51,536 nucleotides of DNA from Nitrospirota bacterium (GTDB lineage: Bacteria; Nitrospirota; Thermodesulfovibrionia; UBA6902). Below, piece by piece: positions 11,461-50,706 of this stretch (position 1 is its first letter; each line of letters begins with the position of its first letter). The notes under the pieces are model-generated. The model ran no database searches. It was not told the DNA's origin and saw only the letters and a program-made list of their open reading frames with translations. The position numbers and the translations under genes were made by a program. The DNA lies in NCBI GenBank assembly GCA_003354025.1, contig PIVU01000004.1:1-51536 (forward strand), written 5' to 3'.

Positions 11461-11538
11461 GTCTTATGATACTAGAGGGTGAAACAATGGGCGTAGTTCG
11501 CAGGGGTCCTTCAATTTATAGATGCAGTGGGTCATATA

Positions 11539-12732: not shown

Positions 12733-12802
12733 TGCCAATCTGTCCTCTATCCTGTCTCTGCTGATAATCTTACGTAGCCTGCATAGTGATTGTGTATAGG
12801 CG

Positions 12803-31833: not shown

Positions 31834-31867
31834 TTTTTACAAGTTAAATATGAACAGAATATGAAGA
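31834..31867 (-). promoter_or_regulatory. TTCA direct-repeat box plus weak -10 for the polyferredoxin/seleno-TlpA operon
   Basis: TCTTCA (31867) and TGTTCA (31856) 11 bp apart; TAAAAA 17 nt after the last repeat start. Confidence 0.55.
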
Positions 31868-31895
31868 TAAGAATTTCTTATATTTATAAGGGTTA

Positions 31896-31951
31896 TCTTC
31901 ATACTTTATTCACTTCCTCTTCATATTCTCTTCGAAATATGTTGTTAATGT
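31896..31951 (+). promoter_or_regulatory. four-copy TTCA direct-repeat box plus -10
   Basis: hexamers at 31896/31907/31918/31929; TAATGT at 31946. Confidence 0.8.
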
Positions 31952-31983
31952 TAAATCAACAATAAACAAAGGAGGTGAGAGAT

Positions 31984-32229
31984 ATGATGCATTGGGGAGA
32001 CGTTGCTGGTATGGGATATGGAGGGTTCGGATTTGGCTGGATATTTATGGTTCTTTTCTGGGCGCTTGTTATAATGGGCGTGATTTATCTGTTAAAGCAG
32101 CTTTTCAGCAGTAGTCATGAGTCTGTTGCAATAGAGTCAGCTCAGGATGTTCTGAAGAAAAGGTATGCTGAAGGGGAAATTACAAAAGAAGAATACAATG
32201 ACAGACTTTCTGTGATTAGAGGGACTTAA
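31984..32229 (+). CDS. SHOCT domain-containing membrane protein
   Basis: MMHWG..GFGWIFM TM segment; LKKRYAEGEITKEEY; RBS GGAGG. Confidence 0.88.
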   Translation: MMHWGDVAGMGYGGFGFGWIFMVLFWALVIMGVIYLLKQLFSSSHESVAIESAQDVLKKRYAEGEITKEEYNDRLSVIRGT

Positions 32230-32357
32230 CAAGGTACAGTAGAACTTTTGTTGTATGATTTAAATCATAGCTAAGTTGACGTAACGATGGTAAAAAATAA
32301 TATTCAAACAATTTAGAGGCCTTGAATAAACAGCAGTAAAAATAAAGGAGGGGAGAT

Positions 32358-32999
32358 ATGAAACGTGCATTTTTAACAACAATCTTAATCTTGGGTTTGT
32401 CAGTAGTACCCGGTTTTGCCCAGATGAGCGGCGGCCATATGACTGACCAGGGTCATATGTCAGGTCAGGGTATGATGGGCAGTACAGGTTATGGAGAAAC
32501 GAAAGAGAATGACTCCTCACAGTACCCGGCAATGGGTTCCGGCATGATGGGCTACGGTGGTTATGGAATGGGTCCCGGAATGATGGGACAAGGTCGTATG
32601 GGTGGATACGGCATGATGGGACAAGGTGGATATGGTGAGTGCGGCATGATGGGGAAAGGCCACATGGGCGGCCGTGGCATGATGGGACAGGGACATATGG
32701 GTGGATCAGGAATGATGGGACAGGGTCATATGGGCGGCATGATGGGTTCCGGTGGTTATGGAATGAAAGGGTATGATGCTGAAGCCTATGAAAAGTACCA
32801 GGAAGATTATAAGAAAAATCAGGAAGAGTACCAGAAGTTTCTGGATGAAACCGCTTCTTTGAGGAAAAAACTTCACAATAAGAAATTTGATTATAATGAG
32901 GCTATTCGTAACCCGGATACAAAACGCGGGGTTATTCTTAAGATCGAAAAGGAGATGCTGGATATTCAGTGGGAGATATACGAAAAGTCTCAGAAATGA
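32358..32999 (+). CDS. periplasmic Met/Gly/His-rich heavy-metal-sensor-like (ZraP/Spy-like) protein
   Basis: signal peptide, GMMGQGHMGG repeats, C-terminal KFLDETASLRKKLHNKKFDY..RNP helical domain. Confidence 0.75.
   Translation: MKRAFLTTILILGLSVVPGFAQMSGGHMTDQGHMSGQGMMGSTGYGETKENDSSQYPAMGSGMMGYGGYGMGPGMMGQGRMGGYGMMGQGGYGECGMMGKGHMGGRGMMGQGHMGGSGMMGQGHMGGMMGSGGYGMKGYDAEAYEKYQEDYKKNQEEYQKFLDETASLRKKLHNKKFDYNEAIRNPDTKRGVILKIEKEMLDIQWEIYEKSQK
32541..32760 (+). repeat. intragenic imperfect repeats encoding GMMG(Q/K)G(H/R)MGG
   Basis: recurrent GG(C/A)ATGATGGG units. Confidence 0.85.
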
Positions 33000-33038
33000 A
33001 ATTGCTTGTTGCAGACGGTTGAAATGATAAGCGGTAAG

Positions 33039-33082
33039 AAAAGCAGCCATGTTTTTATTAGTCAAAAATTTGGCTGCTTTTT
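33039..33082. terminator. probable bidirectional terminator
   Basis: AAAAGCAGCCA / TGGCTGCTTTT inverted repeat between convergent genes. Confidence 0.6.
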
Positions 33083-33351
33083 ATAAAAGAGACTTGCTTG
33101 AATTAAGAAACAGATGACACCGGGTTTGAATCAGATAGTGAATATTAATGTTTAAATGTTCTGATGCTTTATTAAGGAATAATGCAACTACTGGGGCGGT
33201 TATGCTTTAACATGTTTTTAAGGTACAAAGTAAGGTTTAATAGTCATAGCAGTTTCCATTCTTTACTAACACGGCTGTACAACAGCTTCCCCGACTATTC
33301 TGGGCTTAATGTACTTGCTCTTTTTCATGCTGAACCTCCTGTTTATTGAAG

Positions 33352-34143
33352 TTATCGTTTCCTGCCCCCGGGTCCTCTTGAAAAATGTCTTGATGCAGTT
33401 ATGTCAATATCTTTTGTAATTGCCCCTTTTATAACCTTTACAGGTGCAGGCTTTTCTGTGCCAAACCCTCCCATGATAGCTCCCGGTACAGGAGGGCCGC
33501 CGCCATAAACATCTCTTACCCGCAGATAGTATGATCCGCCTGTATGAACGCTAATGAAATATTCCCCCTTATCCCCGGTTTTGTATGATGTAAATAATGG
33601 ATGACCGGTCATTGTGCCTGTTATATGAGCAGAAACGATTGCTCCTTTGACTGGCTTGCCATTAATATTTCTTACGATACCGGTAATTCCGGAAGCATCT
33701 TTAGCAACTGTCCTCTTGAAAGTATTGACATTGGAAAGAATTCCCAGGTTTAAACTCTGGTTTTTTTCAACAACAAAAGTCTGTGGATTGCCTGCTGCAT
33801 TCTGGCTCATATAAAATAAATCACCATTCTCAGGCGGTCCGACTTTATCACCAGATATTTTTTTAAAGGCCCCCATGTAGTACTTGCCAGTGGGTAAGGC
33901 TATACGAAACTTTCCTTTAGAATCCAGGTCGGCTGCTACATCGGGGACTCTAAAATATCGATTATGGTCAGGAACGGGCCTTTCACTATCCTTAAAAAAA
34001 ACAACTGTGCCCCCGGACATTGGCCCCGTATCCCCGATCATTATTGTGCCTGTTATCCATCCCACATCAAAGCTTTGTGCAAAAGCAGGTGATGCTATTG
34101 AAATTATGACTGCTAAAGTTAGTAATAACTTATTCTTGACCAT
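33352..34143 (-). CDS. exported protein with two carboxypeptidase-regulatory-like domains
   Basis: signal peptide; GITGIVRNINGKPVKGAIV; G.F.I.LPTGKYY. Confidence 0.7.
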   Translation of the reverse strand: MVKNKLLLTLAVIISIASPAFAQSFDVGWITGTIMIGDTGPMSGGTVVFFKDSERPVPDHNRYFRVPDVAADLDSKGKFRIALPTGKYYMGAFKKISGDKVGPPENGDLFYMSQNAAGNPQTFVVEKNQSLNLGILSNVNTFKRTVAKDASGITGIVRNINGKPVKGAIVSAHITGTMTGHPLFTSYKTGDKGEYFISVHTGGSYYLRVRDVYGGGPPVPGAIMGGFGTEKPAPVKVIKGAITKDIDITASRHFSRGPGGRKR

Positions 34144-34211
34144 CTCTGCTCTCCTTCCCGGCCTTTACTTTAAGGAGAGTATAAATGATATTTTATTGAT
34201 AAACAAGTCAT

Positions 34212-34586
34212 TTAATCATCTATGCTGTACTCATATTGAAGGCTTACGTCATCTTCATTATGATTGTTCCACTCCATACAGTAAACCTTCTGCCCTTTCA
34301 CAGGAGTAAATATTTCATTGCGTTCTGTTGTTTCCTCTTTGACATGGAATATTGTTTCATCGACCAGATGATAATGAAGGTTGAAATTTAAAGGTTTTGA
34401 TGCTGTAAATAAATAATGTAATTTGCGGGATGGCTCAACTTTAACGCATTTTTCAAGCACATCATCATCTTTAATAATAACCGAGGCCTTTTTGGCACCA
34501 CCTGATTCTGAATGGGCGTAAGCCATTGACACGGCTGCGATTGAAAATATTGAAACTATGAAAAGATTACGCAGACTTTTTTGCAT
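34212..34586 (-). CDS. exported hypothetical protein
   Basis: signal peptide ending AYA-H; FNLHYH, two Cys. Confidence 0.65.
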   Translation of the reverse strand: MQKSLRNLFIVSIFSIAAVSMAYAHSESGGAKKASVIIKDDDVLEKCVKVEPSRKLHYLFTASKPLNFNLHYHLVDETIFHVKEETTERNEIFTPVKGQKVYCMEWNNHNEDDVSLQYEYSIDD

Positions 34587-34632
34587 TTATATTCGCCCTT
34601 CTGTGTGTTGTTCATGTAACAGTTATATGCTA

Positions 34633-34836
34633 TTAGTTTAATACTTTAAATCCAGCCGTAACAACGGCGTTCGAGATTGCTTCCTGCGATGTTTTTGACT
34701 CATCGTATAACACCGCTGCCTTTCCAACAGCAACTTCCGATGATTGAATTCCCTCAAGACTGTCAATAGCATTCTTTACATTCATTACACAGTGCTGGCA
34801 GCTCATGCCATCGATATTTATATTATAGTTATTCAT
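34633..34836 (-). CDS. copZ: heavy-metal-associated (HMA) copper chaperone
   Basis: IDGMSCQHCV; ATG 34836 after GGAGG. Confidence 0.9.
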   Translation of the reverse strand: MNNYNINIDGMSCQHCVMNVKNAIDSLEGIQSSEVAVGKAAVLYDESKTSQEAISNAVVTAGFKVLN

Positions 34837-34837
34837 G

Positions 34838-35269
34838 TTAATCCTCCTCAATGGATTCTATTACTGACTTATAAGCGGTATTCCTGCCCATCATTTGCGA
34901 GAAGTATTTCAATGCTACAATTGACAGGCACATGGAAAGAAATCCTGAAATTGCAGCCATTAGGTCGGAGTTAATGCTGCTTACATATAAAGGAAGGTAG
35001 ATTTTCCCTAGCATTGCTCCGCTTATCAAGGCAATAACAGGCAGGACATATATAAGCATAGCGCCCTTATAAAATGTATAGGCTTTCATCACTAGTCTTA
35101 CTTTTTGACCTACTCCGGCACGGGCTTCATTTATAGCTTCTGTTTCGATGCCATCTGCCGGGATGTCACAGGCTGGTTTTTCGCATTTCTCACATAAACT
35201 CTTTTTTCTAGAGACGACTACAGTTGCTGTATAACCGTCTATACTTTTCACAAAGCCAATTTCATGCAT
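34838..35269 (-). CDS. RseC/MucC (SoxR-reducing system) family protein
   Basis: MHEIGFV..CEKC...C..A.VGQKV..YVLP; start moved to ATG 35269 after AGGAG. Confidence 0.82.
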   Translation of the reverse strand: MHEIGFVKSIDGYTATVVVSRKKSLCEKCEKPACDIPADGIETEAINEARAGVGQKVRLVMKAYTFYKGAMLIYVLPVIALISGAMLGKIYLPLYVSSINSDLMAAISGFLSMCLSIVALKYFSQMMGRNTAYKSVIESIEED

Positions 35270-35294
35270 GGCGATCTCCTTTAACTTATGTTTA

Positions 35295-35368
35295 ATCCTA
35301 GTCCTAAAATGTGAAAATTGTATGAACCGCCAAAACTTCATAATTTCTTCGAATACTTACTTTATGAT
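35295..35368. promoter_or_regulatory. divergent pair of TTCA direct-repeat boxes, each with a -10
   Basis: minus strand: 35328/35317 then TAGGAT at 35300; plus strand: 35335/35346 then TATGAT at 35363. Confidence 0.72.
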
Positions 35369-35398
35369 GGAGTAGGAAGAGAAAGGAGAAGGTATTAC

Positions 35399-36250
35399 AT
35401 GATCTGGAACTCAGTGACGGCAATGACTCTAATTGACATGGTTATCATCTCGCTGACTTTATTGGCTATCCGGAATATCTATATGACGAGAAAATTGCTG
35501 AAGCAACTTGACCTGTTAAGTGGATCATTATTGATGATGTGCGGACTTGTTTTAATTGCAATGTTTTATGTAGCCGATATATCGGTAATGCATATTTTGC
35601 CGACCTTTGTATCTATGGATTATGCTGTATCTATAATGACCAGGCTTCACCTTAGTTACAATTGGATAGCATCTGCTGTGGGGATAAGTTTTATAATAAT
35701 TAGTATCTTGTACTTTAACCGTATACTTTACCCGAAAATCCGGACACTTGAGACAGAACTGAGATACAGGGCATCAACTGACAGTCTTACAAAAACACAT
35801 AATAGATCAAAGTTTGATGAAATACTAACCGCAGAGGTAAAAAGGGCAAAGCGATATAATCACACCCTGTCACTCATAGAATTTGATATTGACCATTTTA
35901 AGGCAATTAATGATAACCATGGACACTTGCACGGTGACTATGCTCTGAAAACAGTTGTTGAACTGGCAAGAAAGAGTGTGAGAAATGTTGATCACCTTGC
36001 CAGATGGGGTGGTGAGGAATTTATGATTATTCTTCCTGAGACCGAACTGGAAAGGGCTGAGGCAATTGCGGAGAGGATAAAAGAAGAGGTAGAAAACTTT
36101 GACTTTAATAAGATCGGTAAAGTAACAGTAAGTTTTGGAGTCGCTGAGTTCAGAATCACTGACTCTGAAGAGATGCTTATTAAACGTGCTGATGATGCCC
36201 TATATGCAGCCAAAAGGAATGGAAGAAACAGAGTTGAGGTTTGTGTGTAA
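35399..36250 (+). CDS. membrane-anchored diguanylate cyclase (GGDEF)
   Basis: TDSLT, DIDHFK.IND.HGH..GD, I-site RNVD, ARWGGEEF; ATG 35399 after AGGAG. Confidence 0.92.
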   Translation: MIWNSVTAMTLIDMVIISLTLLAIRNIYMTRKLLKQLDLLSGSLLMMCGLVLIAMFYVADISVMHILPTFVSMDYAVSIMTRLHLSYNWIASAVGISFIIISILYFNRILYPKIRTLETELRYRASTDSLTKTHNRSKFDEILTAEVKRAKRYNHTLSLIEFDIDHFKAINDNHGHLHGDYALKTVVELARKSVRNVDHLARWGGEEFMIILPETELERAEAIAERIKEEVENFDFNKIGKVTVSFGVAEFRITDSEEMLIKRADDALYAAKRNGRNRVEVCV

Positions 36251-36321
36251 TAGTCGGAATTACAGTGTGCTGTATGCATGGAATATCCCTGATATTATGG
36301 AAAAGGTTTCGCTGGTCTGCT

Positions 36322-36355
36322 TATTCATAATTTGTTCACATTTATGAAGTAGACT
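36322..36355 (+). promoter_or_regulatory. TTCA direct-repeat box plus -10 ahead of a structured RNA
   Basis: TATTCA 36322, TGTTCA 36333, TAGACT 36350. Confidence 0.7.
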
Positions 36356-36361
36356 GGATGT

Positions 36362-36475
36362 AGAGAAAATAAGTGGGTGCTGACCCTGATTAAAAGGTTT
36401 TCCTACCTAACTAAGAGCCCAACCTTTTAACTTCAGCCATGTCCCCTAACATGGTCAGCATCCTCTTATTTTTTT
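36362..36475 (+). ncRNA. candidate structured small RNA (multi-stem, ends in U-run)
   Basis: outer stem AAAATAAG-GGGTGCTGA / TCAGCATCC-CTTATTTT; inner stems TTAAAAGGTT/AACCTTTTAA and CCATGT[CCCCTA]ACATGG. Confidence 0.55.
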
Positions 36476-36484
36476 ACGTTTAAT

Positions 36485-36513
36485 TTGCAGTCCTATAAAT
36501 AATGTGCTATGTT
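36485..36513 (+). promoter_or_regulatory. sigma70-like promoter for the DsbA gene
   Basis: TTGCAG-17 nt-TATGTT with TG extension. Confidence 0.45.
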
Positions 36514-36552
36514 CTTATTTAATTGCTAACTTATCTCTCAGGAGGTTTGACG

Positions 36553-37329
36553 GTGAAAAGAAACAGAACATTTATCTTGCTTTTTCCTATTGCAATATTA
36601 ATTCTGTTTGGATGCACACAGTCTTCGGATGAATTGAAATCATTGGGAGAAAAACTTGATTCCCTTCAAAAGGGCCAGGACAGTATAAAGACAGAACTAG
36701 CTGATCTGAAAAAAACTTTACAAACAAGACCTTCCCCGGCATCCAGAAAAACGGTTGAAGCAGTTAATGCTGTGATTGATATAGACAAAGATCCATACAA
36801 AGGTAAAGCAGATGCTATGGTTACTTTATTGGATTTCTCCGACTACGAATGACCATTCTGCGCCCGCCACGTCCGTGAGACGTTACCGAAGATTGAGAAA
36901 GACTATATCAAAACTGGAAAAGTTAAGTATGTTTATATGGATTTCCCTCTGGAGAATATTCACAAAAAGGCTTTCAAAGCACATGAAGCAGCAAGCTGTT
37001 CAGGTGACCAGGGTAAATACTGGGAAATGCACGGGTTAATTTTTGAAACAAAAAAAATGACTGAAAGTGACCTGGACCAGCATGCTCAATCTATAGGGCT
37101 CGATATGACAGCATTCAATGATTGTCTTGGCAGCGGCACATACGCATCTGATATCAGGATAGATATAGCTGAAGGCAGAAAGGTCGGTATATCGGGAACG
37201 CCCAGCTTTTTAATCGGAATTACCGGTCCTGACCAGTCGAAACTGAAAGTATCTATGAAGATAAGAGGGGCTCAGCCCTATGCTGTCTTTAAGGAGAACC
37301 TGGACAAAGTACTTTCCTCAATAAAATAG
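36553..37329 (+). CDS. selenocysteine-containing DsbA family lipoprotein
   Basis: GTG after GGAGG; lipobox LFGC; in-frame TGA 36850-52 gives FSDYE-U-PFC; continues to DFPL..H, GISGTPSF, GAQPY. Confidence 0.88.
36869..36883 (+). other. bacterial SECIS-like hairpin
   Basis: ACGUC-[CGUGA]-GACGU; loop begins 21 nt after UGA and contains GU. Confidence 0.7.
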
Positions 37330-37408
37330 AATTGGCGGTTGCTTGAGGTTGTTCGTTGTTCCCCGTGAATGTCAGGCTGCTGCATAAGTAACTGCCACTC
37401 CTGTATTA

Positions 37409-37464
37409 ACTTCACAAAGTATTCATTATCTCTTCATTTTATCTTCACGAAAAAGGATTATCTT
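37409..37464 (+). promoter_or_regulatory. four-copy TTCA direct-repeat box plus -10
   Basis: hexamers at 37409/37420/37431/37442; TATCTT at 37459. Confidence 0.8.
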
Positions 37465-37506
37465 ATATCCACGATATAAAAGTATTTATAAGACAATAGG
37501 TGAAAA

Positions 37507-38268
37507 ATGAATAAACAATCTAAAATCATCACCGGCCGGAATCGGACATTAACGAATGTGGGAAATAATTATTATACACTGGATAATGTTTCAGCTCGTC
37601 GTGCAAAACATACGAAAATGATAACTGGTATATTCATGGTCATCGTTCTGGTCGGTATGTACAGTGTCTTTTCTGAAACAGGAGTTCTCGATATCATGAT
37701 GAACGGAGAGATGCTGCAGGAAAGGATTGGTCAGCTTGGTTTCTGGGGGCCTCTTATGATTATCAGTCTGATAGCTGTTGCAATAGTTTTCAGTCCTCTG
37801 CCCAGTGCTCCCATCGCTCTTGCAGCGGGAGCAGTGTATGGTCATACCTATGGAATGGTTTATGTTCTTGCCGGATCTATGATTGGAGCTATTGTTGCTT
37901 TTAGTATTGCCCGGGTTCTTGGTTATGAAATCGTGCATAAGTTGATTGATAAGAAATTTTCTGTAAAATTGCCGGGCGGGCAGAATACTCTGACAGGGCT
38001 TGTTTTCGTAAGCCGTCTTATACCATTCATTTCCTTTGACTCAATTAGTTATATTGCGGGATTGACATCTCTTACATTCTGGAGGTTTACTGCTGCTACT
38101 TTTGCCGGGATAGTTCCGGCCAGTTTTTTGTTGGCCCATTTTGGGAGCGAGATAGCCGCAACTGAAGCAGGGCAGAGTATGGTTACGATTATTTTGCTGA
38201 GTGGGATTACACTGATTCCGCTGGCCTTTGCAGGCATAAAAATACTTCGCAACAGAAATTGCTTCTAG
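37507..38268 (+). CDS. TVP38/TMEM64 (DedA/SNARE-associated) membrane protein
   Basis: SPLPSAPIALAAGAVYG, RLIPFISFD.ISYIAG. Confidence 0.88.
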   Translation: MNKQSKIITGRNRTLTNVGNNYYTLDNVSARRAKHTKMITGIFMVIVLVGMYSVFSETGVLDIMMNGEMLQERIGQLGFWGPLMIISLIAVAIVFSPLPSAPIALAAGAVYGHTYGMVYVLAGSMIGAIVAFSIARVLGYEIVHKLIDKKFSVKLPGGQNTLTGLVFVSRLIPFISFDSISYIAGLTSLTFWRFTAATFAGIVPASFLLAHFGSEIAATEAGQSMVTIILLSGITLIPLAFAGIKILRNRNCF

Positions 38269-38308
38269 CTTTTATTAAACTTGAAGATGCAGGAAATAAC
38301 CAGGTGAG

Positions 38309-39337
38309 TTGACGGAGGTTATATATTTGGAAAAGATTTTTGACCACACAAGATATTTTCTAGTATTTATTATAGGATCGTCTCTGGGAATAACTTACCT
38401 GCACTATTCCACTCTTCCAGGCGTTCTTGAACTTCATAATATATTTACCGAGCTATACTATGTGCCCATACTTCTGGGAGCTCTTGCATTCGGGCTTAGA
38501 GGCGCTGTTATAACCTATCTTTTTGTGACCCTGTTGTATGTCCCATATGTTGTGGTGCACTGGTCTGGCACTAATCTGTTTATTATAAATAAAATATTCC
38601 ATGCTGTATTTTCCGGTACATTTGCTGTTCTGGCCGGAGTGCTTTCCGACAGGGAGAGGAAGCGACAGGAGCAGGTGGATAAAGACCGGTATCTTGCCGG
38701 GCTTGGTCGTGCTGCTGCTGCGATTGTTCATGATCTAAAGAACCCGATAATTACAATACGGGGTTTTTCAAGACGTATAATGCAGCGCAAAGGGGATATT
38801 GATACTGCTGCCCGGATAGTTAATGATTCCGCAAAGCATATGGAGGCAATAGTCCATAATGTACTTGATTTTGCCAGAGCTGTACAGCTTGATAGGCGGG
38901 AGGACAATATTAACAGAGTGTTAGAAAAAGCTTGTGAATCCTGTGAGACAAAGGCCGCTGACGCAGGAGTGGCGCTGTCTCTTGATCTCCCTGCTGGACC
39001 TGTTATAGGTGACTTTGATTCTATCCATATGCAGCGTGCCCTGGTGAATTTAATTAGTAATGCCATTGAAGCTTCCGCGAAACATGATGTTGTCGCAGTA
39101 AGCTCCGAGGCAGTTGATGATTCAATTAGTGTCAGGATAAAGGACAATGGTAAGGGGATGGACAAAGAAGCACTTGAGAATATTTTCATCCCTTTCTATA
39201 CAAGTAAGAGTTCCGGTACAGGTATAGGCACTGCTATTGCAAAAAAAGTGATTGAAGGACATAAAGGAAGAATCCGGGTGAACAGCAGGCCGGGACTGGG
39301 AACGGAAATACTGATAAAGTTGCCTGCGTCTAATTAA
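38309..39337 (+). CDS. intramembrane-sensing histidine kinase (no cognate regulator in window)
   Basis: TM bundle with LHY..LHN..LYYVP; VHDLKNP, NAIEA, DNGKG, GTGIG. Confidence 0.88.
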   Translation: MTEVIYLEKIFDHTRYFLVFIIGSSLGITYLHYSTLPGVLELHNIFTELYYVPILLGALAFGLRGAVITYLFVTLLYVPYVVVHWSGTNLFIINKIFHAVFSGTFAVLAGVLSDRERKRQEQVDKDRYLAGLGRAAAAIVHDLKNPIITIRGFSRRIMQRKGDIDTAARIVNDSAKHMEAIVHNVLDFARAVQLDRREDNINRVLEKACESCETKAADAGVALSLDLPAGPVIGDFDSIHMQRALVNLISNAIEASAKHDVVAVSSEAVDDSISVRIKDNGKGMDKEALENIFIPFYTSKSSGTGIGTAIAKKVIEGHKGRIRVNSRPGLGTEILIKLPASN

Positions 39338-39668
39338 TTGATCTGATCCGTCCTGTGTGGCGGTCGAAAATAATTGTATCAACTACATTGTTATTGTCCT
39401 TGATAACTACTTTCATAAACCTACCCTTATCTTTGATGATTTCATAATTAAGCCCTTTATCACCGAAATAATGTGTGAGTGATTCCCTGACTTCTTTGAT
39501 GTCAAGCATGTGCTTATGCATGCCATAATTGCTGACACGGTCGCAGAAATCACCATAGGGCGTAACATGTTTGTTTTTGTGCCCTGCTGATGCAATGACC
39601 GGACTTGTTAATAATACGGCCAATGCAATGGCTGAAATCAATGTTTTCTTTATGCTCATATCACTCAT
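39330..39668 (-). CDS. exported PepSY-like hypothetical protein
   Basis: signal peptide; C-terminal VDTIIFDRHTGRIRSI; start uncertain (39668 or 39659). Confidence 0.65.
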   Translation of the reverse strand: MSDMSIKKTLISAIALAVLLTSPVIASAGHKNKHVTPYGDFCDRVSNYGMHKHMLDIKEVRESLTHYFGDKGLNYEIIKDKGRFMKVVIKDNNNVVDTIIFDRHTGRIRSIN

Positions 39669-39690
39669 TTTGACTCTCTCTGCTAGTTCT

Positions 39691-39757
39691 TTTTTACCAT
39701 GTAAAGATGAAGGCATTGTGAAATTCCAGCTGTTTGGATGAGTTCACAATTTATTCA
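39691..39757. promoter_or_regulatory. divergent TTCA direct-repeat boxes
   Basis: minus strand: 39724/39713 then TAAAAA at 39696; plus strand: AGTTCA 39741/TATTCA 39752 with no downstream plus-strand gene. Confidence 0.5.
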
Positions 39758-39902
39758 TAACTTATTTATGATATGTTCTTAATTTATTGGCTAATTATAA
39801 TTAAAGCTCAGTATGCTTATTGAATAAAGCGATGAACGGTGCAGCTATGGGATTGTCTTTATTGTCAGTATGAGTTACTCATGCTCTTTCTTAGCGGGTC
39901 AT

Positions 39903-42900: not shown

Positions 42901-43346
42901 GGAGCCTGAACTGAGTTGAATAATTTACGGGAGAGGGTGTCTCTGTAAACAATATCTTGAGCCGGATGCCTGAATGAATCCGGCTGGAAGAGGTTCTTTA
43001 TTGTGATAAGCGTGCAGGTGACATGCTTGCAGTTAGTGTACGGTGTCCATGCCGGACAGTCACAGGATGTTAAGATGTCGCTGCCTGCCGAAGAAATATC
43101 TACGGAATAATGCCTGGTGCCGTATACCGTTGCCGTAAGAACGGAATAATCATCGCTCCATTCGAAGTCCATGAGATTATTCTTTTTATAATAATTAAAT
43201 CCCCGTTCAACATATTTCTTCGGGGCCATGGCATAAATAGAATTAGCCGGCAAAGATTCAAGGGCTTTAAATAGTTTTTTCTGATTAAGATTGATGATAT
43301 TATTTGACATAACAGGCTTCTGAGTTGCAACCTCTAATTTTATCAC
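39903..43346 (-). CDS. SWIM zinc finger / SNF2 family helicase
   Basis: CDCP..CKH SWIM; LADDMGLGKT, FDEAQAIKN, TGTPLEN, QASDRAHRIGQ. Confidence 0.93.
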   Translation of the reverse strand: MIKLEVATQKPVMSNNIINLNQKKLFKALESLPANSIYAMAPKKYVERGFNYYKKNNLMDFEWSDDYSVLTATVYGTRHYSVDISSAGSDILTSCDCPAWTPYTNCKHVTCTLITIKNLFQPDSFRHPAQDIVYRDTLSRKLFNSVQAPVQDESIEYSIVLELSSFGCNISVLRNDQKAYPYMDGIPEELKQMISATYYRLSYFKKYLVSYGNKYPISLNTGEGKSAIEFDDSTPYSCITELDAGNKFVTARKFLMNKGKEVTNCIIEYDFIINFNTHKIGLIRDRSGWELWNNLMELTEHNNDYISDLPEESFRISTGKFKRIQIISPSLPSDEEKPDDLALKLKGRRCKPVKASHSYRATILPAKYNKDILIIKAACNLGGLMQSPSYNLFNFFVSLNNELSSFLRANKRKAFICRAFFNMLSAGTKTARLRAVKDALSDGDFNRPRIKREARRFLNDHLSIFLKKEKQLQLHEGKWITAPINKDKETALYKIPYEIFGWKIFNNIPDHDEMLVPARELHENLPLLYEKFKEHNIELFFKSSRVVESKWDFAFDANRLSGIDWFEIKPEIECDGKLIDESEWMEMLRNKSVVEKAGTVRIMDSNARRIFNIISSIYSTDQSSTTGAKGKEIVRVPRLQILDWIELRRSGVRVKLPPADEAIIERLGRFDKIEPRALPAKLKAKLRPYQKDGYYWLSFLYEHRFGACLADDMGLGKTVQAITLLGGIKERLVKFPTAFKPCAHLIVVPPSLLFNWENEINKFCPSLKIYMYTGNDREIAFEGHDIVLTTYGLVRRDIEKLKEIRFDVIIFDEAQAIKNIYADTTGAVRRLSSNFNLAVTGTPLENHVGEYYSIIDLVLPGLLGDYDKFKPLIKQDTSPVLDMIINRTKPFVLRRTKDKILKELPPKIENDIYLELTDKQKALYNKTVEQVKSRIDDAYKSKTSSQAKIIALTAILKLRQLCISPMLISDDIKEPSPKIDFLLTKLKELQDEGHSALVFSQFTSFLDILEKDLEKNKMDFLRLDGSTAVTKRKKLIETFQSGEGPSIFLLSLKAGGQGLNLTRASYVFHLDPWWNPAVENQASDRAHRIGQKNKVTITRILTHHTIEEKMMQLKKKKLVLYKAVMDDTTGSKKSLSISKSDFNYLLS

Positions 43347-43605
43347 ACTGGAAATGTTTCAGGGATATGTAACATTATGAAAACTGGCTCTTAGTGTAAT
43401 AGAGTGGGGCAAGTTTGCGTGTGTAATGGTTCTCTTGCTGTCCTCCTCATTGGCGAGGAGGGCCTGCCTGCCGGCAGGGTTAGGGCAGATTTTACAATTC
43501 ATGAAAAATTCTATAGAAAATTAATTGAAATAGTTGTTTAATAAGAGCAAGATTGACTTTTTGTTGATTTAATTATTCAAAACCAAAAGAGAAAAGGAGG
43601 CCTTA

Positions 43606-44226
43606 ATGAAAAAAGCATTAATATTTTTATTCACATTAACACTACTATTTGTGAACATTGCATTTGCAACACACGAGACAGCCAAGCCGGCTGTGTTGTA
43701 TATGAGTGACGATGAACAGATCGCACTCGCACGGAGCGCCGCCCCGTCCTTCATATCAAGAGATGCTGCTATTATTATCTTAAACTGGGACGGCAAATTT
43801 AAAACAGTCCGTAAAGGCACAAACGGATTTACATGTTATTCAGACGTTGACAAAATAGACGTACCTGTGCCGTCATGTATGGATGAAGCGGCATTGCAGT
43901 GGTGGAACGATTTTATAAGCAGGAAGCCGAAACCTACCAACAAAATACCCGGAGTTGCTTACATGGCACAGGGTGCGCTGCGCTGGGAGAAAGAGGGGAA
44001 GATATTTATGGACTGGCATACACCGGGAACAAAGAGAGTGAAGGAACCACCTCACTGGCTGCTCTTCTGGCCTTTTGATCCTAAAAAGACTAAACTCCCA
44101 ACTTATCCCGGCAAGTTCGGCACATCAATAATGTATGAAGGGACTCCCTGGGTCCATATGATGATCTACCAGGACCCTATGTTGATGAATGTGAATGTGA
44201 ATGGGGATGTTCCCGATAAGAAATAG
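43606..44226 (+). CDS. exported hypothetical protein
   Basis: signal peptide AFA; ARSAAP..GTNGFTC..C..YM..PPHW..GTPWVHMM; RBS AGGAGG. Confidence 0.75.
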   Translation: MKKALIFLFTLTLLFVNIAFATHETAKPAVLYMSDDEQIALARSAAPSFISRDAAIIILNWDGKFKTVRKGTNGFTCYSDVDKIDVPVPSCMDEAALQWWNDFISRKPKPTNKIPGVAYMAQGALRWEKEGKIFMDWHTPGTKRVKEPPHWLLFWPFDPKKTKLPTYPGKFGTSIMYEGTPWVHMMIYQDPMLMNVNVNGDVPDKK

Positions 44227-44240
44227 ATAATATATGGGGT

Positions 44241-44267
44241 GAGCCGCTTGAATTGTTCAAGCGGCTT
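44241..44267 (+). terminator. hairpin after the 43606-44226 gene
   Basis: AGCCGCTTGAA-TTG-TTCAAGCGGCT. Confidence 0.55.
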
Positions 44268-44318
44268 AAACTATCCGTAATATACCTCCATAATTACCTC
44301 CTTTAGCTTGAGCGATTT

Positions 44319-44374
44319 TCTTCACAAATTATTCACTTTTTCTTCAATTTATCTTCAAACATGTTTGGTAATCT
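44319..44374 (+). promoter_or_regulatory. four-copy TTCA direct-repeat box plus -10
   Basis: hexamers at 44319/44330/44341/44352; TAATCT at 44369. Confidence 0.8.
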
Positions 44375-44422
44375 TTAATTAAAGAATAGAACTAATAAAC
44401 AGCGGGAAAAAGGAGGCTGAAA

Positions 44423-44829
44423 ATGAAAAAAAATTAATCGGAATAGCTTTAGTATCAATCCTTGCATTCGGTACACTGGCCTTTGCCCAGGGCATGGGCG
44501 GCCGGGGAGGCGGTCAGATGGGCGGCTCCAACAATGGCGGGCATATGATGGACCGGAACTCTGGCGGGCATATGGATGGGACTGGTTATGGCGGACACAT
44601 GGGCGGCCAGACAGGCCAAAGGTATGAAGAAGACCAGACGTTTCTTAATGAAACTGTTGATATAAGAAAAGAGCTACATGAAAAAAGGTTTGAATATGCA
44701 GAAGCTAACCGTGACCCCAACACAACAATTGGAACAATCAGGGCGCTTGAAAAAGAGATTTATGATTTAGAGAGACAGATTAATGAGAAGGCCCCTGCAA
44801 ATAGAAGAGGATACGGGCCCAATTACTAA
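44423..44829 (+). pseudogene. ZraP-like Met/Gly/His-rich periplasmic protein, frameshifted at an A8 tract right after ATG
   Basis: AGGAGG-ATG AAA AAA AAT TAA; one extra A gives MKKKLIGIALVSILAFGTLAFA-QGMGG... in frame with ORF 44494-44829. Confidence 0.7.
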
Positions 44830-44853
44830 AAGCATTCTTCACAAATCCCCTTG

Positions 44854-44892
44854 GAGCGGCCGGAGCATATCCGGCTGCTCTCCTTCCTTTTA
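44854..44892 (+). terminator. intrinsic terminator-like hairpin
   Basis: GAGCGGCCGGA / TCCGGCTGCTC followed by a pyrimidine/T run. Confidence 0.55.
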
Positions 44893-44923
44893 GCAACTTA
44901 TATAATGATTAGTTCTCAAGAGG

Positions 44924-44957
44924 TATTCACAATTTATTCATAATTAAATTTTATAAT
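44924..44957 (+). promoter_or_regulatory. TTCA direct-repeat box plus -10
   Basis: TATTCA at 44924 and 44935; TATAAT at 44952. Confidence 0.78.
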
Positions 44958-44978
44958 ACTATAAATAATGGAGGAATA

Positions 44979-45506
44979 ATGGGAAAATTTATGAAAACAA
45001 TAATTATGCTTTCATTTATGCTGATCAGTGCTTGCGCGATGTCTGCCAATAAGCCTCATCACGAGGCGAATATGCCCGGAATGGATAAACAACCCGATTC
45101 CCAATATGCATGGAAAGTAAACTGGAACTCACTTGAGGAAGGCATGAAAAAATCGAAAGCAGAGGGGAAGCCCATGCTGGTTGACTTTGCAGTCCATGAA
45201 GGGTGTGAGCGCTGTGAATTCCTTCAGGCAAATGTATATAGCCGTGATACAATTGTGGACAGGATTAATAAAGACTTTATACCGATCTTTATAGACCTGG
45301 CCCAGACCTTGACTCCGGAAGAGAGGGCCCTTGGAGAGAAACATGAGTATCACGATGACTGTCTTCTTCTTTTTCTTGACCATAATGGAAAACCGATCTT
45401 TGATAAAGATGACGGGAAAATGTGTTTTGCGGATAATATAGAGCCTGAAGTTTTTATGGATTATCTTAACTACGTCACAAGTATGTACAACAATAAAAAA
45501 CAGTGA
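44979..45506 (+). CDS. thioredoxin-fold lipoprotein
   Basis: lipobox ISAC; W.SLEEG..K.K.EGKPMLVDF..GCERC. Confidence 0.8.
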   Translation: MGKFMKTIIMLSFMLISACAMSANKPHHEANMPGMDKQPDSQYAWKVNWNSLEEGMKKSKAEGKPMLVDFAVHEGCERCEFLQANVYSRDTIVDRINKDFIPIFIDLAQTLTPEERALGEKHEYHDDCLLLFLDHNGKPIFDKDDGKMCFADNIEPEVFMDYLNYVTSMYNNKKQ

Positions 45507-45525
45507 ATAAGATTTCGATGAACTT

Positions 45526-46050
45526 ATGGCCAGACCAATAAAAAGATTTCCTATTGCAGTCCCGTTGATCTTCTGTCTTACTTTAGTTGGATTGATTATT
45601 TTATCAAGCCAGGATGTGCATGCCCACTTTGTAAAAGCTGCGGAAGATGAAATAAGCCCTGTATGCGGCATGCCACTTGATAAGCACCCTGACTGGGCCT
45701 CGGTTATCATGTTTAAAGACGGCAAACATGTGAAACTTCACAGCCCTAAAAATATGTTTGTTTTTTACTTTAACATGGGTAAATATGATAGCAAGCATAA
45801 GAAGCATGATATTTCCACAATGCATGTGATTGACTACTACTCTCGCAAAAATATTAAAGCCAAAGGAGCGTTTTATGTGCTCGGCTGCAATGTGACCGGT
45901 CCCATGGGAGATGATCTTATACCTCTTAAAGATAGAAACGCTGCAGAAAAATTCAGCGCAGAACATGGCGGAAAGATACTTGCCTTCGATGAGATTACCC
46001 CTGACGTGATTAATGATTTAAAGAATGTCACTCCTGATAATTCCCAATAA
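45526..46050 (+). CDS. NosL-family copper-binding accessory protein
   Basis: PVCGM, AFYVLG..V.GPMGDDLIP..AEKF..EHGG. Confidence 0.85.
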   Translation: MARPIKRFPIAVPLIFCLTLVGLIILSSQDVHAHFVKAAEDEISPVCGMPLDKHPDWASVIMFKDGKHVKLHSPKNMFVFYFNMGKYDSKHKKHDISTMHVIDYYSRKNIKAKGAFYVLGCNVTGPMGDDLIPLKDRNAAEKFSAEHGGKILAFDEITPDVINDLKNVTPDNSQ

Positions 46051-46104
46051 TCCCTGTTCTTTAATCTGTTAGTTAACCTTCCTGCTTTCGGATATTCACA
46101 TTAG

Positions 46105-46506
46105 ATGTATAATTACTATATGGATAAACGAAGTGTGTTTTCTAAACCTTTGCTTCTTGTACTACAAGCCTTTTTTGCATTGTTAATTATGGTATCTGCC
46201 TGTTCAGTTGCCCCTGAAGAAACAAATGTGAAGGATACAATAATAAAGCACTTTGAATCCCGAGGCTACAGGGTGGTCAAGCTTGAGATCACGGGGATTG
46301 AGAATTTCCCGCTCGGTAAAAGGGATTATATGGCTCCCAAGAAATACACCGTTGGGGTTCCACATATTGAACTGCTGAGAATCGATAGCAGTACTGGTCC
46401 GCATAGTTCACCGTTAACTTTTAAGAATGCCTCAGTAACTATTAGAAGTACGGACAAGTACGGGGTATGGATGATAGAGAATATTCAGGGGATACCTCTT
46501 ACTTAA
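46105..46506 (+). CDS. hypothetical lipoprotein
   Basis: lipobox VSAC; start may be the second Met. Confidence 0.6.
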   Translation: MYNYYMDKRSVFSKPLLLVLQAFFALLIMVSACSVAPEETNVKDTIIKHFESRGYRVVKLEITGIENFPLGKRDYMAPKKYTVGVPHIELLRIDSSTGPHSSPLTFKNASVTIRSTDKYGVWMIENIQGIPLT

Positions 46507-46533
46507 AAAGAAAGTGATAATTTGCAGGCATTA

Positions 46534-48558
46534 TTAGTAACGTATATGTATGCCTGCTCCAAAGTCGTATTCAGAGTGGTGTTTCAGCATAGCGGAAAAG
46601 TATTTATTGATAGTCCAGCCTGCGCCTATTGCCCACTCTTCTTTAGACTCGCTGTCGTACTGAAATTCGCCTGTAACGTATAGACGGGCGGTAAGCTGCA
46701 GTTCATTTTCAAGAGATATTCTTGCATCTCCTTCAGTATCGAGCCATACCGTGCTTTCAAACATAAGCGGCAAGAGATACATAAAGCCGAAAATGCCGCG
46801 ATGCTCCTGTTCTCCGTCAGTTAACACGCCACCGGCAAAGGCCTGAAAGAAGCGGTTGAAATATCTTTCATATGTGAAGACCGCCTCATAATCATCATCC
46901 CATCCGGCCTCCCATGTGCCCCTCAATGTGTTTCGTGTATCTGCGGCAACTATCTGTCCCTCTGTTATCTGGGAAAGGATTGAGGCATCAGCCCAGGCGT
47001 ACCAGTGTTCTTTAAAAAGGTCCTTCCTGATAGCTGAAATTATCGGATCTAGTTCATCTCCTTCATAATGAACGATGCGTGCCATCCCGGCTTTCATGTG
47101 ATACAGGAGATGGCAGTGGAAAAACCAGTCCTGCTGTTCGTTTGCGTAAAACTCTATTACCCTCGTTCCGAGTGGAGGGACGTCCACAGTATGTTTCAGA
47201 GGTGAGTAGTCTCCGTGCTTATTGACTACCCTGAAAAAATGGCCGTGCAGGTGCATAGGGTGGTGCATCATTGTTTTATTAACCATAATGAAACGGACAT
47301 TCTCACCGCGATTAATCCTGATCATGTCAGCTTCATTTAATGTCTTGCCGTTCAATGACCAGACATAGCGTTCCATGTCACCTGTAAGCTCCAGTCTTAC
47401 TTCCCGTACTTCATGATCTTCGGACAGTGCTGTTGATGCCGGAGACTTAAGATTGTCATAGGGAGCCATTGGGCGTTTATTCATCGGCATTTTCATCATG
47501 CCGACTTCATGAGACATTCCCTTCATGGCACTGCCTTCTTTGCCATGACCTGCATGCATTTTGTAAAGATTCGGCTGAGGGACATTTTCTGCTGATACCC
47601 GTTCCCCCTGGCCTATGAAAAGCGAAGTATAACCCGAACCGTCCTGTGCTGTTGCACGGAATTCATACGCTCCATTTTCAGGAATCTTTATGATTACATC
47701 ATAGGTCTCCGCTATTGCGATAAGGAATCTGCCCGTATGCATTGGCTTCACATCTACACCATCGGCTGAAATGACTTTCATATGTCCTCCGGCAAACTGT
47801 ACATAAAAGTATGTTGATGCAGCTGCATTAATGATCCTCAGCCGGATGGTCTGGCCCAGCTGTGCATTGAGTTCTGATGAAGTTTGTCCATTAATAATGA
47901 ATGCATCGTAAGCAACATCCGAAATGTCCATGGGCGGCATGCGCATCCATGAGCGATTGATCACATTACCGAGGGCATTTTCTTGCAGAGCTCCGGAGAT
48001 ACTTTGCATTGACCCCTTTTTTAGTGAATAGTAATCATTCCCGCTTTTAAGAGTGCGGAGGATCTCATCGGGATTCTCATTGGTCCAGTCGGACAGTACG
48101 ACAACATGGTCAAGGTCGGTTTGTATTCTGGAAACAGCCGGTTCAATAACAATGGAGCCAAATACTCCCTTCTGCTCCTGAAGACCGGTGTGAGAGTGAT
48201 ACCAATACGTTCCTGAATGTTTTATGGGGAACTCATATGTGAATGTTGTGCCTGACAATATTGGCGGAGTCGTAACATATGGAACACCGTCTTGAAGATT
48301 CGGCAGTAAAATACCGTGCCAGTGAATGGAAGTCTCCATTTCCATTTCATTCTTGACATGGATTCTTGCGACATCGCCTTCTTTGAAGCGGAGAGTAGGA
48401 CCGGGAATTGACTCATTAATGGTCATGGCCTGTACATCAGTCCCTGTGAAATTTACGCTCTGGTTACGTATAACCAGACTATATTCTCTTTCTGATGCTG
48501 AGGCAATAATGCTGACAATAAGAAAACATAATGTAAAAAAGATGGTTCTTGTTTTCAT
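46534..48558 (-). CDS. multicopper oxidase (CopA/PcoA-like) with C-terminal beta-rich (CopB-like) extension
   Basis: SIHWHG, YWYHSH, HHPMHLHGH, FFHCHLLYHM; tail ends in alternating AGIHIRY. Confidence 0.92.
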   Translation of the reverse strand: MKTRTIFFTLCFLIVSIIASASEREYSLVIRNQSVNFTGTDVQAMTINESIPGPTLRFKEGDVARIHVKNEMEMETSIHWHGILLPNLQDGVPYVTTPPILSGTTFTYEFPIKHSGTYWYHSHTGLQEQKGVFGSIVIEPAVSRIQTDLDHVVVLSDWTNENPDEILRTLKSGNDYYSLKKGSMQSISGALQENALGNVINRSWMRMPPMDISDVAYDAFIINGQTSSELNAQLGQTIRLRIINAAASTYFYVQFAGGHMKVISADGVDVKPMHTGRFLIAIAETYDVIIKIPENGAYEFRATAQDGSGYTSLFIGQGERVSAENVPQPNLYKMHAGHGKEGSAMKGMSHEVGMMKMPMNKRPMAPYDNLKSPASTALSEDHEVREVRLELTGDMERYVWSLNGKTLNEADMIRINRGENVRFIMVNKTMMHHPMHLHGHFFRVVNKHGDYSPLKHTVDVPPLGTRVIEFYANEQQDWFFHCHLLYHMKAGMARIVHYEGDELDPIISAIRKDLFKEHWYAWADASILSQITEGQIVAADTRNTLRGTWEAGWDDDYEAVFTYERYFNRFFQAFAGGVLTDGEQEHRGIFGFMYLLPLMFESTVWLDTEGDARISLENELQLTARLYVTGEFQYDSESKEEWAIGAGWTINKYFSAMLKHHSEYDFGAGIHIRY

Positions 48559-48696
48559 TGTAATCTCCCCGGGAGCTTTAACAAATATTGTTTATGAGAA
48601 TATTATTGTTGATTTTTAAGGGATTTACAACTGAATTATAACAATGCAAACCAACCCTAATAGCACAACATATTAATTTTATAATTTTTCAGGCCT

Positions 48697-48730
48697 TCTT
48701 CACATTGTCTTCAAACTTATCAGGTACCTT
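48697..48730 (+). promoter_or_regulatory. TTCA direct-repeat box plus -10
   Basis: TCTTCA at 48697 and 48708; TACCTT at 48725. Confidence 0.75.
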
Positions 48731-48986
48731 ATAACAAGGATAAAACACATATGCCGCAGAACCGCTTGAGAAAACTGATCGTTAAGCAACGTGAAGTAGA
48801 CATACAACTTAGAGGTTGAAGCGGAGGTTGAGTTGGTCACAGAATTAAGGAGAACCTGTTGAATATCTTCAATAAAAGCCTGCCTTAATCATAAGGACCA
48901 GTTAACTGAACATTAAAATAGTGGTTTTTAAACAAAATTCATGAGAATTTTGAACAAGCGATTTGCGTCAAAAAAAGGAGAGAGGA

Positions 48987-49370
48987 ATGAGAAGGTTATT
49001 GATTATCCTAACCGGAATTATGATTTTGATGGGGAGCACTTATGCGTACAGTTTTAATGGAGAATTTAATTCAAGTGATATGAAAGTAAAAACCTCAACG
49101 GAAAATAGTCCTCTTAAAGTCGGAGATAATGCTGTTACTATCGAGCTGATCGATGCAAAGGGTGCAACTATTAAAGATGCAGAAGTTTCTGTTTATTTTT
49201 TCATGCCGTCAATGCCGGCGATGAATTATGAGGTAACGTCTTCGCTGGATGGAGAGAAGTATGCAGCAGTTATTAAACCGACAATGCCCGGAAAGTGGGC
49301 GGCTGACATAAAGGTGAAAAAAGCCGGAGGAGAGGAAAGCAAGGTCCAGGTTGATTTTGAGGCCAGGTAA
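48987..49370 (+). CDS. YtkA/FixH-like exported protein
   Basis: PLKVGDN..D..G..I.DA.V..MPSMPAM..Y..MPGKW; ATG 48987 after GGAG/GAGG. Confidence 0.8.
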   Translation: MRRLLIILTGIMILMGSTYAYSFNGEFNSSDMKVKTSTENSPLKVGDNAVTIELIDAKGATIKDAEVSVYFFMPSMPAMNYEVTSSLDGEKYAAVIKPTMPGKWAADIKVKKAGGEESKVQVDFEAR

Positions 49371-50666: not shown

Positions 50667-50706
50667 AGAATATATTTTATAGATGAAGAGGACGGAGGAT
50701 AACGGG

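Follow-up and report, generated by a model that had tools for sequence, protein, structure and literature searches.

The stretch of DNA described here (51,536 nucleotides, hereafter the window) is contig PIVU01000004.1 of the GenBank assembly GCA_003354025.1, which represents a bacterium of the phylum Nitrospirota, class Thermodesulfovibrionia. It is contig C454 of a 4.17-Mb genome in 642 contigs (G000). About eleven promoters are packed into 17 kb of the window, and at each of them short direct repeats with a TTCA core recur every 11 bp in front of a -10 box. These arrays are putative binding sites, and they probably belong to one OmpR/PhoB-family response regulator, a BaeR-like protein encoded on another contig (C354) of the same genome.

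Results

Repeat arrays in the window

The repeated unit is the hexamer (T/A)(C/A/G)TTC(A/G), whose copies lie 11 bp apart in plus-strand arrays of two or four, with one possible three-copy array (39741). An earlier note, made from the sequence of the window, had listed ten sites, and all ten were recovered at the same positions. Its claim of a fixed distance was confirmed as well: at 7/7 plus-strand sites the -10 box begins 17 nt downstream of the first base of the last hexamer, without deviation, and the three minus-strand sites (31867/56, 35328/17 and 39724/13) have the same geometry, with TAAAAA, TAGGAT and TAAAAA at +17, respectively. An eleventh array, missing from that list, lies on the plus strand at 39741/39752, with a degenerate copy at 39763. 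The order xCTTCA-TATTCA-TCTTCA-TCTTCR is indeed common to the three four-copy arrays. More extensively, the half-site takes the form T(C/A)TTCA(C/T)AA; its core is conserved between arrays and the spacers differ. From the -10 box to the half-sites the distances are 9 and 20 nt, where 16-18 nt would be canonical, and no -35-like hexamer stands at that canonical distance; a housekeeping promoter nearby has the usual arrangement, TTGCCA-17-TAATCT. A reading of the half-sites as ordinary -35 boxes (TTCACA resembling TTGACA) is ruled out by this spacing, except at 39741, where TTCACA-18-TATGAT also fits a plain promoter.

The genes behind the promoters were assigned to families with Pfam and NCBIfam profiles. 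The leftmost site is a minus-strand dimer (31867, 31856, with TAAAAA at 31834-31839) upstream of a 924-aa Fer4_5 gene (29054-31828), whose ATG follows 5 nt after TAAAAA, which may mean a leaderless mRNA. On the plus strand, the four-copy array at 31896, 31907, 31918 and 31929 (TAATGT, 31946-31951) precedes the genes of a small SHOCT membrane protein (31975-32229) and of a ZraP-like protein rich in Met, His and Gly (32358-32999). Two dimers then point away from each other: the minus-strand one (35328, 35317; TAGGAT, 35295-35300) lies upstream of an RseC/MucC-like gene (34838-35269), a CopZ-like HMA gene (34633-34851) and two genes for exported proteins (34212-34586 and 33352-34143), and the plus-strand one (35335, 35346; TATGAT, 35363-35368) upstream of a membrane GGDEF diguanylate cyclase gene (probable start 35399, end 36250). 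The plus-strand dimer at 36322 and 36333 (TAGACT, 36350-36355) stands before a structured RNA (36362-36478). Downstream of this RNA is a DsbA-like thioredoxin-fold gene (36523-37329, plus strand) with an in-frame TGA (36850-36852) at a U-P-F-C redox motif, the product of which is a probable selenoprotein. A second four-copy array (37409, 37420, 37431, 37442; TATCTT, 37459-37464; plus strand) precedes a DedA/VTT gene (37507-38268) and a histidine kinase gene (38309-39337).

Two arrays are less regular. The weaker minus-strand dimer, formed by ATTTCA at 39724 and CCTTCA at 39713 with TAAAAA at +17 (39691-39724 overall), lies upstream of the gene of a small secreted protein (39330-39716, probable start 39668). 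The plus-strand array at 39741, 39752 and 39763 (39741-39785 overall), for which the -10 box is either TAATTT, at +17 relative to the third copy, or TATGAT at 39767, is directed towards a gene-less stretch. It faces the gap before the 3' end of a convergent SNF2 helicase gene, where a terminator-like hairpin is found at 39867-39885. The stretch downstream of 39741 folds no better than shuffled sequences (z = 0.30), and a short transcript of ~100 nt could start from this array.

The third four-copy array (44319, 44330, 44341, 44352; TAATCT, 44369-44374; plus strand) precedes a ZraP-like gene (ATG at 44423; listed frame 44494-44829) with a strong terminator behind it (44853-44881). Behind the plus-strand dimer at 44924 and 44935 (TATAAT, 44952-44957) are a thioredoxin-like gene (44979-45506), a NosL gene (45526-46050) and an unknown gene (46105-46506); the multicopper oxidase gene that comes next (46534-48558) has no array of its own. 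The last plus-strand dimer (48697, 48708; TACCTT, 48725-48730) lies upstream of genes for a YtkA-like protein (48963-49370), an outer-membrane factor (OEP, 49392-50666) and a CusB-like fusion protein with HlyD_D23 (50683-51534), the latter running off the window.

At the ZraP-like gene, the ATG at 44423 is followed by a run of eight A, which leaves the signal peptide MKKKLIGIALVSILAFGTLAFA out of frame with the open reading frame (ORF) 44494-44829. A contig with nine A, obtained in one of four runs of the same sample, restores the frame (44423-44494). The difference may reflect a homopolymer error, population heterogeneity or slippage. Five sequencing runs were listed for this DNA, all of them contigs of unrecorded kind and four from a single sample; no RNA run was among them.

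Comparison with chance expectation

At a spacing of 11 bp, 15 plus-strand hexamer pairs were counted in the window, and at other spacings from 4 to 33 bp between none and two, except at 22 (6) and 33 (4). Over the whole window, 18 pairs at 11 bp compare with a mean of 1.2 and a maximum of 5 in 300 dinucleotide shuffles. The earlier note had proposed that its observation be held against shuffled intergenic DNA; in 13 intergenic segments (2,760 nt, 31.8-49.0 kb), the 15 pairs seen stand against 0.06 (maximum 1) in 500 dinucleotide shuffles. Furthermore, among 132 chains in the 4.17-Mb genome three have four copies, and all three are inside the window.

The distance to the -10 box was examined on high-scoring dimers genome-wide, keeping the last dimer of each array and using 21 other offsets as control. 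TAnnnT occurs at +17 in 7/10 window arrays, compared with at most two at each of the other offsets. Outside the window it occurs at +17 in 8/33 arrays, with three more at +18 and at most four at other offsets. The pattern TTCAY-N6-TTCR-N11-TANNNT was also searched as a regular expression, next to 55 control geometries (spacer 3-10, tail 8-14). It gave 28 matches genome-wide, eight of them in the window (controls: mean 7.0, standard deviation 3.2, maximum 14), and 20 outside the window (mean 6.7, standard deviation 3.1, maximum 12). A generic sigma-70 scan was uninformative, with 45 sites against 44.9 expected. The repeat observation is thus confirmed as real and far above chance, and the genome-wide signal is that of intergenic dimers which also have a -10 box, not of the loose hexamer alone.

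A BaeR-like regulator and its kinase

The regulator had been expected outside the window, and this was borne out: no Trans_reg_C gene is present in the window, and six matches were found elsewhere in the genome. On contig C354, a gene at 12054-12746 (minus strand) encodes a response regulator with a Response_reg domain (1.3e-30) and a winged-helix Trans_reg_C domain (1.5e-24). It is overlapped by the gene of a kinase (10703-12064), in which two transmembrane segments surround a periplasmic domain of ~138 residues and are accompanied by HAMP, HisKA and HATPase domains. The best structure match of the regulator is E. coli BaeR (PDB 4b09, 6e-58), and its recognition helix, DRTIDAHIKNIRHKV, is identical to that of BaeR, DRTIDSHIKNLRRKL, at 11/15 positions. 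Distant homologues of the regulator reach at most 56% identity among the matches listed, and those with a name are metagenome-assembled genomes (MAGs) of Nitrospiraceae. Two of the six Trans_reg_C matches are halves of one PhoB-like gene split over contig ends (C71 3-173 and C340 1-177), with the recognition helix RTVDVHVRRLR.

Three motif sites are located on C354 itself: one 39 nt before the ATG of the regulator, one directly after the kinase gene, and one before a ZraP-like gene with two M16 peptidase genes behind it. The same promoter model thus occurs outside the window upstream of the regulator operon, of a small secreted protein and a CYCXC (seleno)protein, and of the third ZraP-like gene with the two M16 peptidase genes. 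It is also found upstream of genes for HtrA/DegP, a periplasmic rhodanese, a redoxin/TlpA-like protein, an FtsX/MacB permease, a glycine-zipper lipoprotein, a multihaem cytochrome c, a di-haem cytochrome c with Met-rich ends, and His- and Arg/Asp/His-rich secreted proteins. The CYCXC-family gene (C354 9865-10215; NF041379, 4.4e-22) has an ORF which stops right after the conserved part, and its product is probably a selenoprotein within the regulon.

In G000 (C354 12746-12800) and in most of the orthologous loci (L015-L037), an extended -10 box (TGnTATnAT) is separated from the ATG of the regulator gene by only 6-7 nt, which suggests that the regulator mRNA is leaderless.

As judged from the assigned families, the predicted target set is coherent and made up mostly of exported, metal- or thiol-handling proteins. 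Both RND-type efflux components and a Spy/ZraP/CpxP-type periplasmic protein are included. Three ZraP-like paralogues are present in G000, each behind an array, and a profile built from them and one orthologue from the related genome G008 has Salmonella ZraP as its only meaningful PDB match (3lay, 3e-05).

The histidine kinase of the window (38309-39337), with three hydrophobic segments at its N terminus and a core like those of AtoS and ZraS, had been put forward as a candidate partner of the regulator. This proposal was not supported, as the C354 regulator has its own overlapping and syntenic BaeS-like kinase. Being the second gene behind the 37409 four-copy array, the window kinase reads best as a target, and it is possible that it gives an extra input to the regulator.

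Conservation in related genomes

Among 40 related genomes, the regulator is found at 73-83% identity in 25. The dimer before its ATG is kept, at -39 to -46, in half of the 28 orthologous loci with enough upstream sequence, and in these the TATnAT of an extended -10 box (TGnTATnAT) follows 11-12 nt after. The site after the kinase gene is kept in 18/30 loci; in G001 and G013, the genes behind it are again those of the small secreted protein and the CYCXC protein. In G008, which belongs to a different genus, the site upstream of YtkA-OEP-CusB is nearly identical to 48697, and a four-copy array stands upstream of the SHOCT and ZraP-like pair, with the terminal TTCG kept too. A site is also kept in this genome at a similar membrane GGDEF-like ORF, at FtsX/MacB and at the multihaem cytochrome c.

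The composite pattern was counted in the 40 relatives beside two controls, one with a spacer of 7 and one with the pattern reversed. In the 25 genomes with a close regulator orthologue, the mean per genome is 11.8 for the pattern, 2.8 for the spacer-7 control and 1.7 for the reversed control. Five genomes with a 54-68% identical regulator have means of 5.0, 1.8 and 0.8, and the ten with no regulator orthologue 3.5, 3.0 and 1.4, in the same order. The only high value among these ten is that of G021, with 10 matches; this genome encodes an orthologue of the kinase (60% identity) with the conserved site after it, and has a 100-N assembly gap exactly at the expected position of the regulator. The counts are suggestive of a motif enrichment that follows the presence of the C354-type two-component system.

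The island of the window (30000-51536) looks accessory. Its DedA gene has no close orthologue among the 40 relatives, five of which have matches of at most 39% identity. In G008, several of the same regulated operons are scattered on other contigs, including four sites within 4 kb (L171).

A family of structured RNAs

The small RNA (sRNA) named in the earlier note is supported as a candidate by the element behind the 36322 promoter (36362-36478, plus strand), which comprises ~110 nt, folds with -41.8 kcal/mol (z = -6.7 against shuffles) and ends in a U-run. No Rfam family matches 36362-36478 at E<=1, the only match in 31000-51536 being a chance snoRNA (E = 0.38). The element, of ~100 nt, is multi-copy, being present in 18/24 family relatives with up to 10 copies per genome and five matches in G000. 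Other copies lie on contigs C276 (5214-5320 and 4512-4555) and C550 (2615-2666) of G000 and at loci L171 and L183-L193. In an alignment of 18 copies, a 12-bp closing stem shows compensatory changes at seven pairs, and the 13-nt stretch AGCCAUGUCCCCU is invariant. A TTCA dimer with a -10 box at +17 precedes four of these 18 copies (those of the window, G008, G018 and G021), the others having different upstream sequences. This points to a family of sibling sRNAs with differently wired promoters.

A small secreted protein linked to the kinase

A family of small secreted proteins with the motif HVTPYGDFC is encoded on C354 (10269-10607), with a paralogue in the island (39330-39716, minus strand). 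It has no match in Pfam or NCBIfam; its nearest Atlas neighbours are Nitrospirota hypothetical proteins (0.91-0.93), with a weak likeness to PepSY (0.77). Directly behind the BaeS-like kinase gene there is always a gene of this family, with a regulated promoter of its own. By analogy with CpxP and ZraP in their systems, the protein may be a periplasmic co-sensor or feedback partner of the kinase.

Discussion

Proposed mechanism and points against it

The presence of the motif at the regulator's own promoter, its conservation and its phyletic tracking support the proposal of the earlier note that one OmpR/PhoB-type regulator would co-control copper, redox, diguanylate cyclase, kinase and sRNA genes. 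In the following scheme the binding, the positive sign of the regulation and the kind of signal are inferred. The periplasmic domain of the C354 kinase would sense a periplasmic disturbance, probably copper or another metal-linked envelope stress, and the kinase would then phosphorylate the regulator. The latter would bind two TTCA half-sites, one helical turn apart, as a head-to-tail dimer, with two dimers at the four-copy arrays. As the core of the promoter-proximal half-site ends 11 nt before the -10 box, the protein would stand in for a -35 box and recruit RNA polymerase as PhoB does at pho boxes. Half-sites at 9 and 20 nt from the -10 box and the lack of a -35 box make class II activation of the PhoB type the likely mechanism. 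The regulator would activate its own operon, in a positive autoregulation, together with ~25 promoters genome-wide, eleven of them in the 17-kb island.

Several observations weigh against this reading. Two of the minus-strand -10 boxes are TAAAAA, without the final T. In the other 14/28 orthologous regulator loci the -10 box is kept and the clean dimer is missing, and the promoter site of HtrA/DegP is kept in only 4/30 loci. When the loose hexamer is counted alone over the whole genome, the spacing of 11 gives 138 pairs, within the 85-270 found at other spacings. Several scans relied on a position weight matrix derived from the sites of the window itself, and the tests independent of this matrix are those with the regular expression, those outside the window and those in the relatives. 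Moreover, the related genomes are kin and not independent samples, so that the phyletic contrast is suggestive and does not amount to a formal test. The best NCBIfam model of the regulator, BaeR NF007982, scores 236.1 bits, below the equivalog cut-off of 380, and the two best models of the kinase, both BaeS, are likewise below their cut-offs (NF012163, 184.0 against 500 bits; NF007837, 165.1 against 603). Finally, no metal-binding motif is obvious in the kinase's periplasmic domain, and copper as the signal is therefore proposed solely from the functions of the targets.

Alternative explanations

A regulon signal that is real could be bound by another OmpR-family regulator of the genome, such as those on contigs C330, C152 and C621 or the PhoB-like one split over C71 and C340. 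Regulators of this family often recognise related half-sites, and C330 comes closest: its recognition helix, RTVDTHIKTLRKKL, resembles that of the C354 protein, and its kinase gene is immediately followed by three TCTTCAC repeats with an 11-bp period, both of which count against an assignment to C354. We nevertheless regard this alternative as unlikely. A close relative of the C330 regulator (E<=1e-70) is present in only 1/40 relatives, whereas the motif is enriched family-wide, which C330 cannot account for. The repeats at C330 do not have TAnnnT at +17 and are conserved in 2/4 orthologous loci, and the genome scans found no motif-bearing promoter at any of the other regulator genes. C330 (39-3367) encodes a two-component system with a PhoB/WalK-like regulator and a kinase, and its TCTTCAC repeats stand before genes for a Na/Pi cotransporter and PhoU. 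The pho-box reading which this locus prompted was rejected: seven genes for phosphate-binding-protein-like products (PBP_like_2) have no dimer within 300 nt upstream (0/7), besides the different geometry of C330 and the rarity of its relatives.

It is very unlikely that the repeats are instead operators at which the regulator, or another protein, represses transcription by occluding the -35 region. The sites do overlap the core promoter, where repressors bind too, and sequence alone does not reveal whether the regulation is positive or negative. There is, however, no -35-like hexamer at the canonical distance, the half-sites lying 9 and 20 nt from the -10 box, and a distance to the -10 box that is strictly kept is typical of activators in contact with the polymerase. 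The pho box of E. coli pstS has the same spacing to its -10 box. Furthermore, the characterised relatives, BaeR and CopR of Corynebacterium glutamicum, are activators according to the portions of PMC3799227 and PMC3140484 that deal with them.

A chance periodicity of AT-rich intergenic DNA, or a remnant of duplicated promoters with no regulatory role, is effectively refuted: two of the four-copy arrays precede paralogous ZraP-like genes, so that some similarity could be inherited, and the spacing of the loose hexamer is not exceptional genome-wide, yet the pairs far exceed those in shuffles, and from one array to the next it is the cores that stay the same and not the spacers. Enrichment of the pattern extends beyond the window and to 25 related genomes, and relatives of other genera keep orthologous sites.

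Comparison with known systems

The closest counterpart of the C354 pair is BaeSR, the envelope-stress two-component system of E. coli and Salmonella, which gives the best family and structure match for both proteins and has a near-identical recognition helix. Like it, the C354 system would be autoregulated, and an RND-type efflux operon and a Spy/ZraP/CpxP-type protein are among its predicted targets; in BaeSR, mdtABCD/acrD and spy are the parallels of the efflux operon and ZraP-like targets found here. In contrast, the C354 regulator is at most ~45% identical to BaeR, and both proteins remain below the equivalog cut-offs. The regulon is also much larger (~25 promoters), with a strict architecture of two or four copies and a fixed distance to the -10 box; its targets are mostly copper and thiol-redox proteins, with a diguanylate cyclase, a kinase and an sRNA in addition; and the host is an anaerobic member of the Nitrospirota. 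The BaeR boxes quoted in PMC3799227 are TCTNCANAA (Yamamoto et al. 2008) and TTTTTCTCCATDATTGGC (Nishino et al. 2005). The comparison with BaeR motifs suggested in the earlier note proved apt, as 24/28 window half-sites fit TCTNCANAA, in the form quoted there, at >=5/7 specified positions and one at all seven, although the box is short and degenerate and the fit is weak evidence.

A second parallel is CopRS of C. glutamicum. CopR is described in the relevant part of PMC3140484 as a copper-responsive OmpR-family activator of multicopper oxidase and copper export genes, and its experimentally mapped site is given there as TGAAGATTTnnTGAAGATTT. The reverse complement of this site, AAATCTTCA-nn-AAATCTTCA, has a TCTTCA core and is a direct repeat with an 11-bp period. 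Unlike the dozens of sites in G000, C. glutamicum is reported in that part of the source to have a single genomic site, between two divergent operons (PMC3140484). On the basis of the BaeR-box fit and the CopR-site repeat, the C354 system appears to work like BaeSR and CopRS; by the curated models, it is not an equivalog of BaeSR, CusRS or PhoBR.

The scores of the C354 pair are below the cut-offs of the heavy-metal models (TIGR01387, 173.2 against 279.2 bits; TIGR01386, 114.9 against 292.55). CusRS and CopRS of Proteobacteria are similar in having copper-linked targets under a two-component system, represented here by CusCB-like efflux, an adjacent multicopper oxidase and copper chaperones. 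The CusR box is a palindrome, not a direct repeat. As for PhoB, the score of the C354 regulator is below the equivalog cut-off (TIGR02154, 220.9 against 296.2 bits). In the pho box of E. coli, 11-bp direct repeats replace the -35 box, end ~10 nt before the -10 box and come in multiples of two half-sites (CTGTCAT), and PhoB is thought to contact region 4 of sigma-70. The arrays described here share the 11-bp direct repeats in place of the -35 box, their approximate distance to the -10 box and the multiples of two half-sites, and differ in the half-site and in the lack of phosphate genes among the targets; moreover, the genome has other, more PhoB-like regulators. Literature searches for BaeR or BaeS together with Nitrospirota or Thermodesulfovibrio brought up, among the papers listed, none on this system.

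It is conceivable, if on balance doubtful, that the regulon is more than a counterpart of BaeSR and belongs to a three-layered network against envelope and metal stress that spans the Thermodesulfovibrionia lineage. These would be graded promoters of two or four copies with a conserved order of half-sites, the secreted kinase-linked protein, and the sRNA family, with an invariant C-rich loop (AGCCAUGUCCCCU) and one copy wired to the regulator in at least four genera.

Conclusions

The regulon is well defined and conceptually ordinary, extending a textbook mechanism and overturning nothing. It provides a testable regulatory map for an uncultured anaerobic Nitrospirota lineage, with one sensor-regulator pair, a precise site, a strict promoter grammar and ~25 target promoters. 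This map would join copper efflux and chaperones, periplasmic thiol-redox proteins, ZraP-like chaperones, the synthesis of cyclic di-GMP, an orphan kinase and a small RNA, and many exported Met/His-rich proteins so far labelled as hypothetical can be annotated as putatively belonging to a response to metal or envelope stress. The site may also be used to read such regulons directly from MAGs of the group. Follow-up would be most rewarding for the sRNA family and for the conserved small secreted partner; if a copy of the sRNA family is indeed wired to the regulator, a post-transcriptional arm would be added to the regulon.

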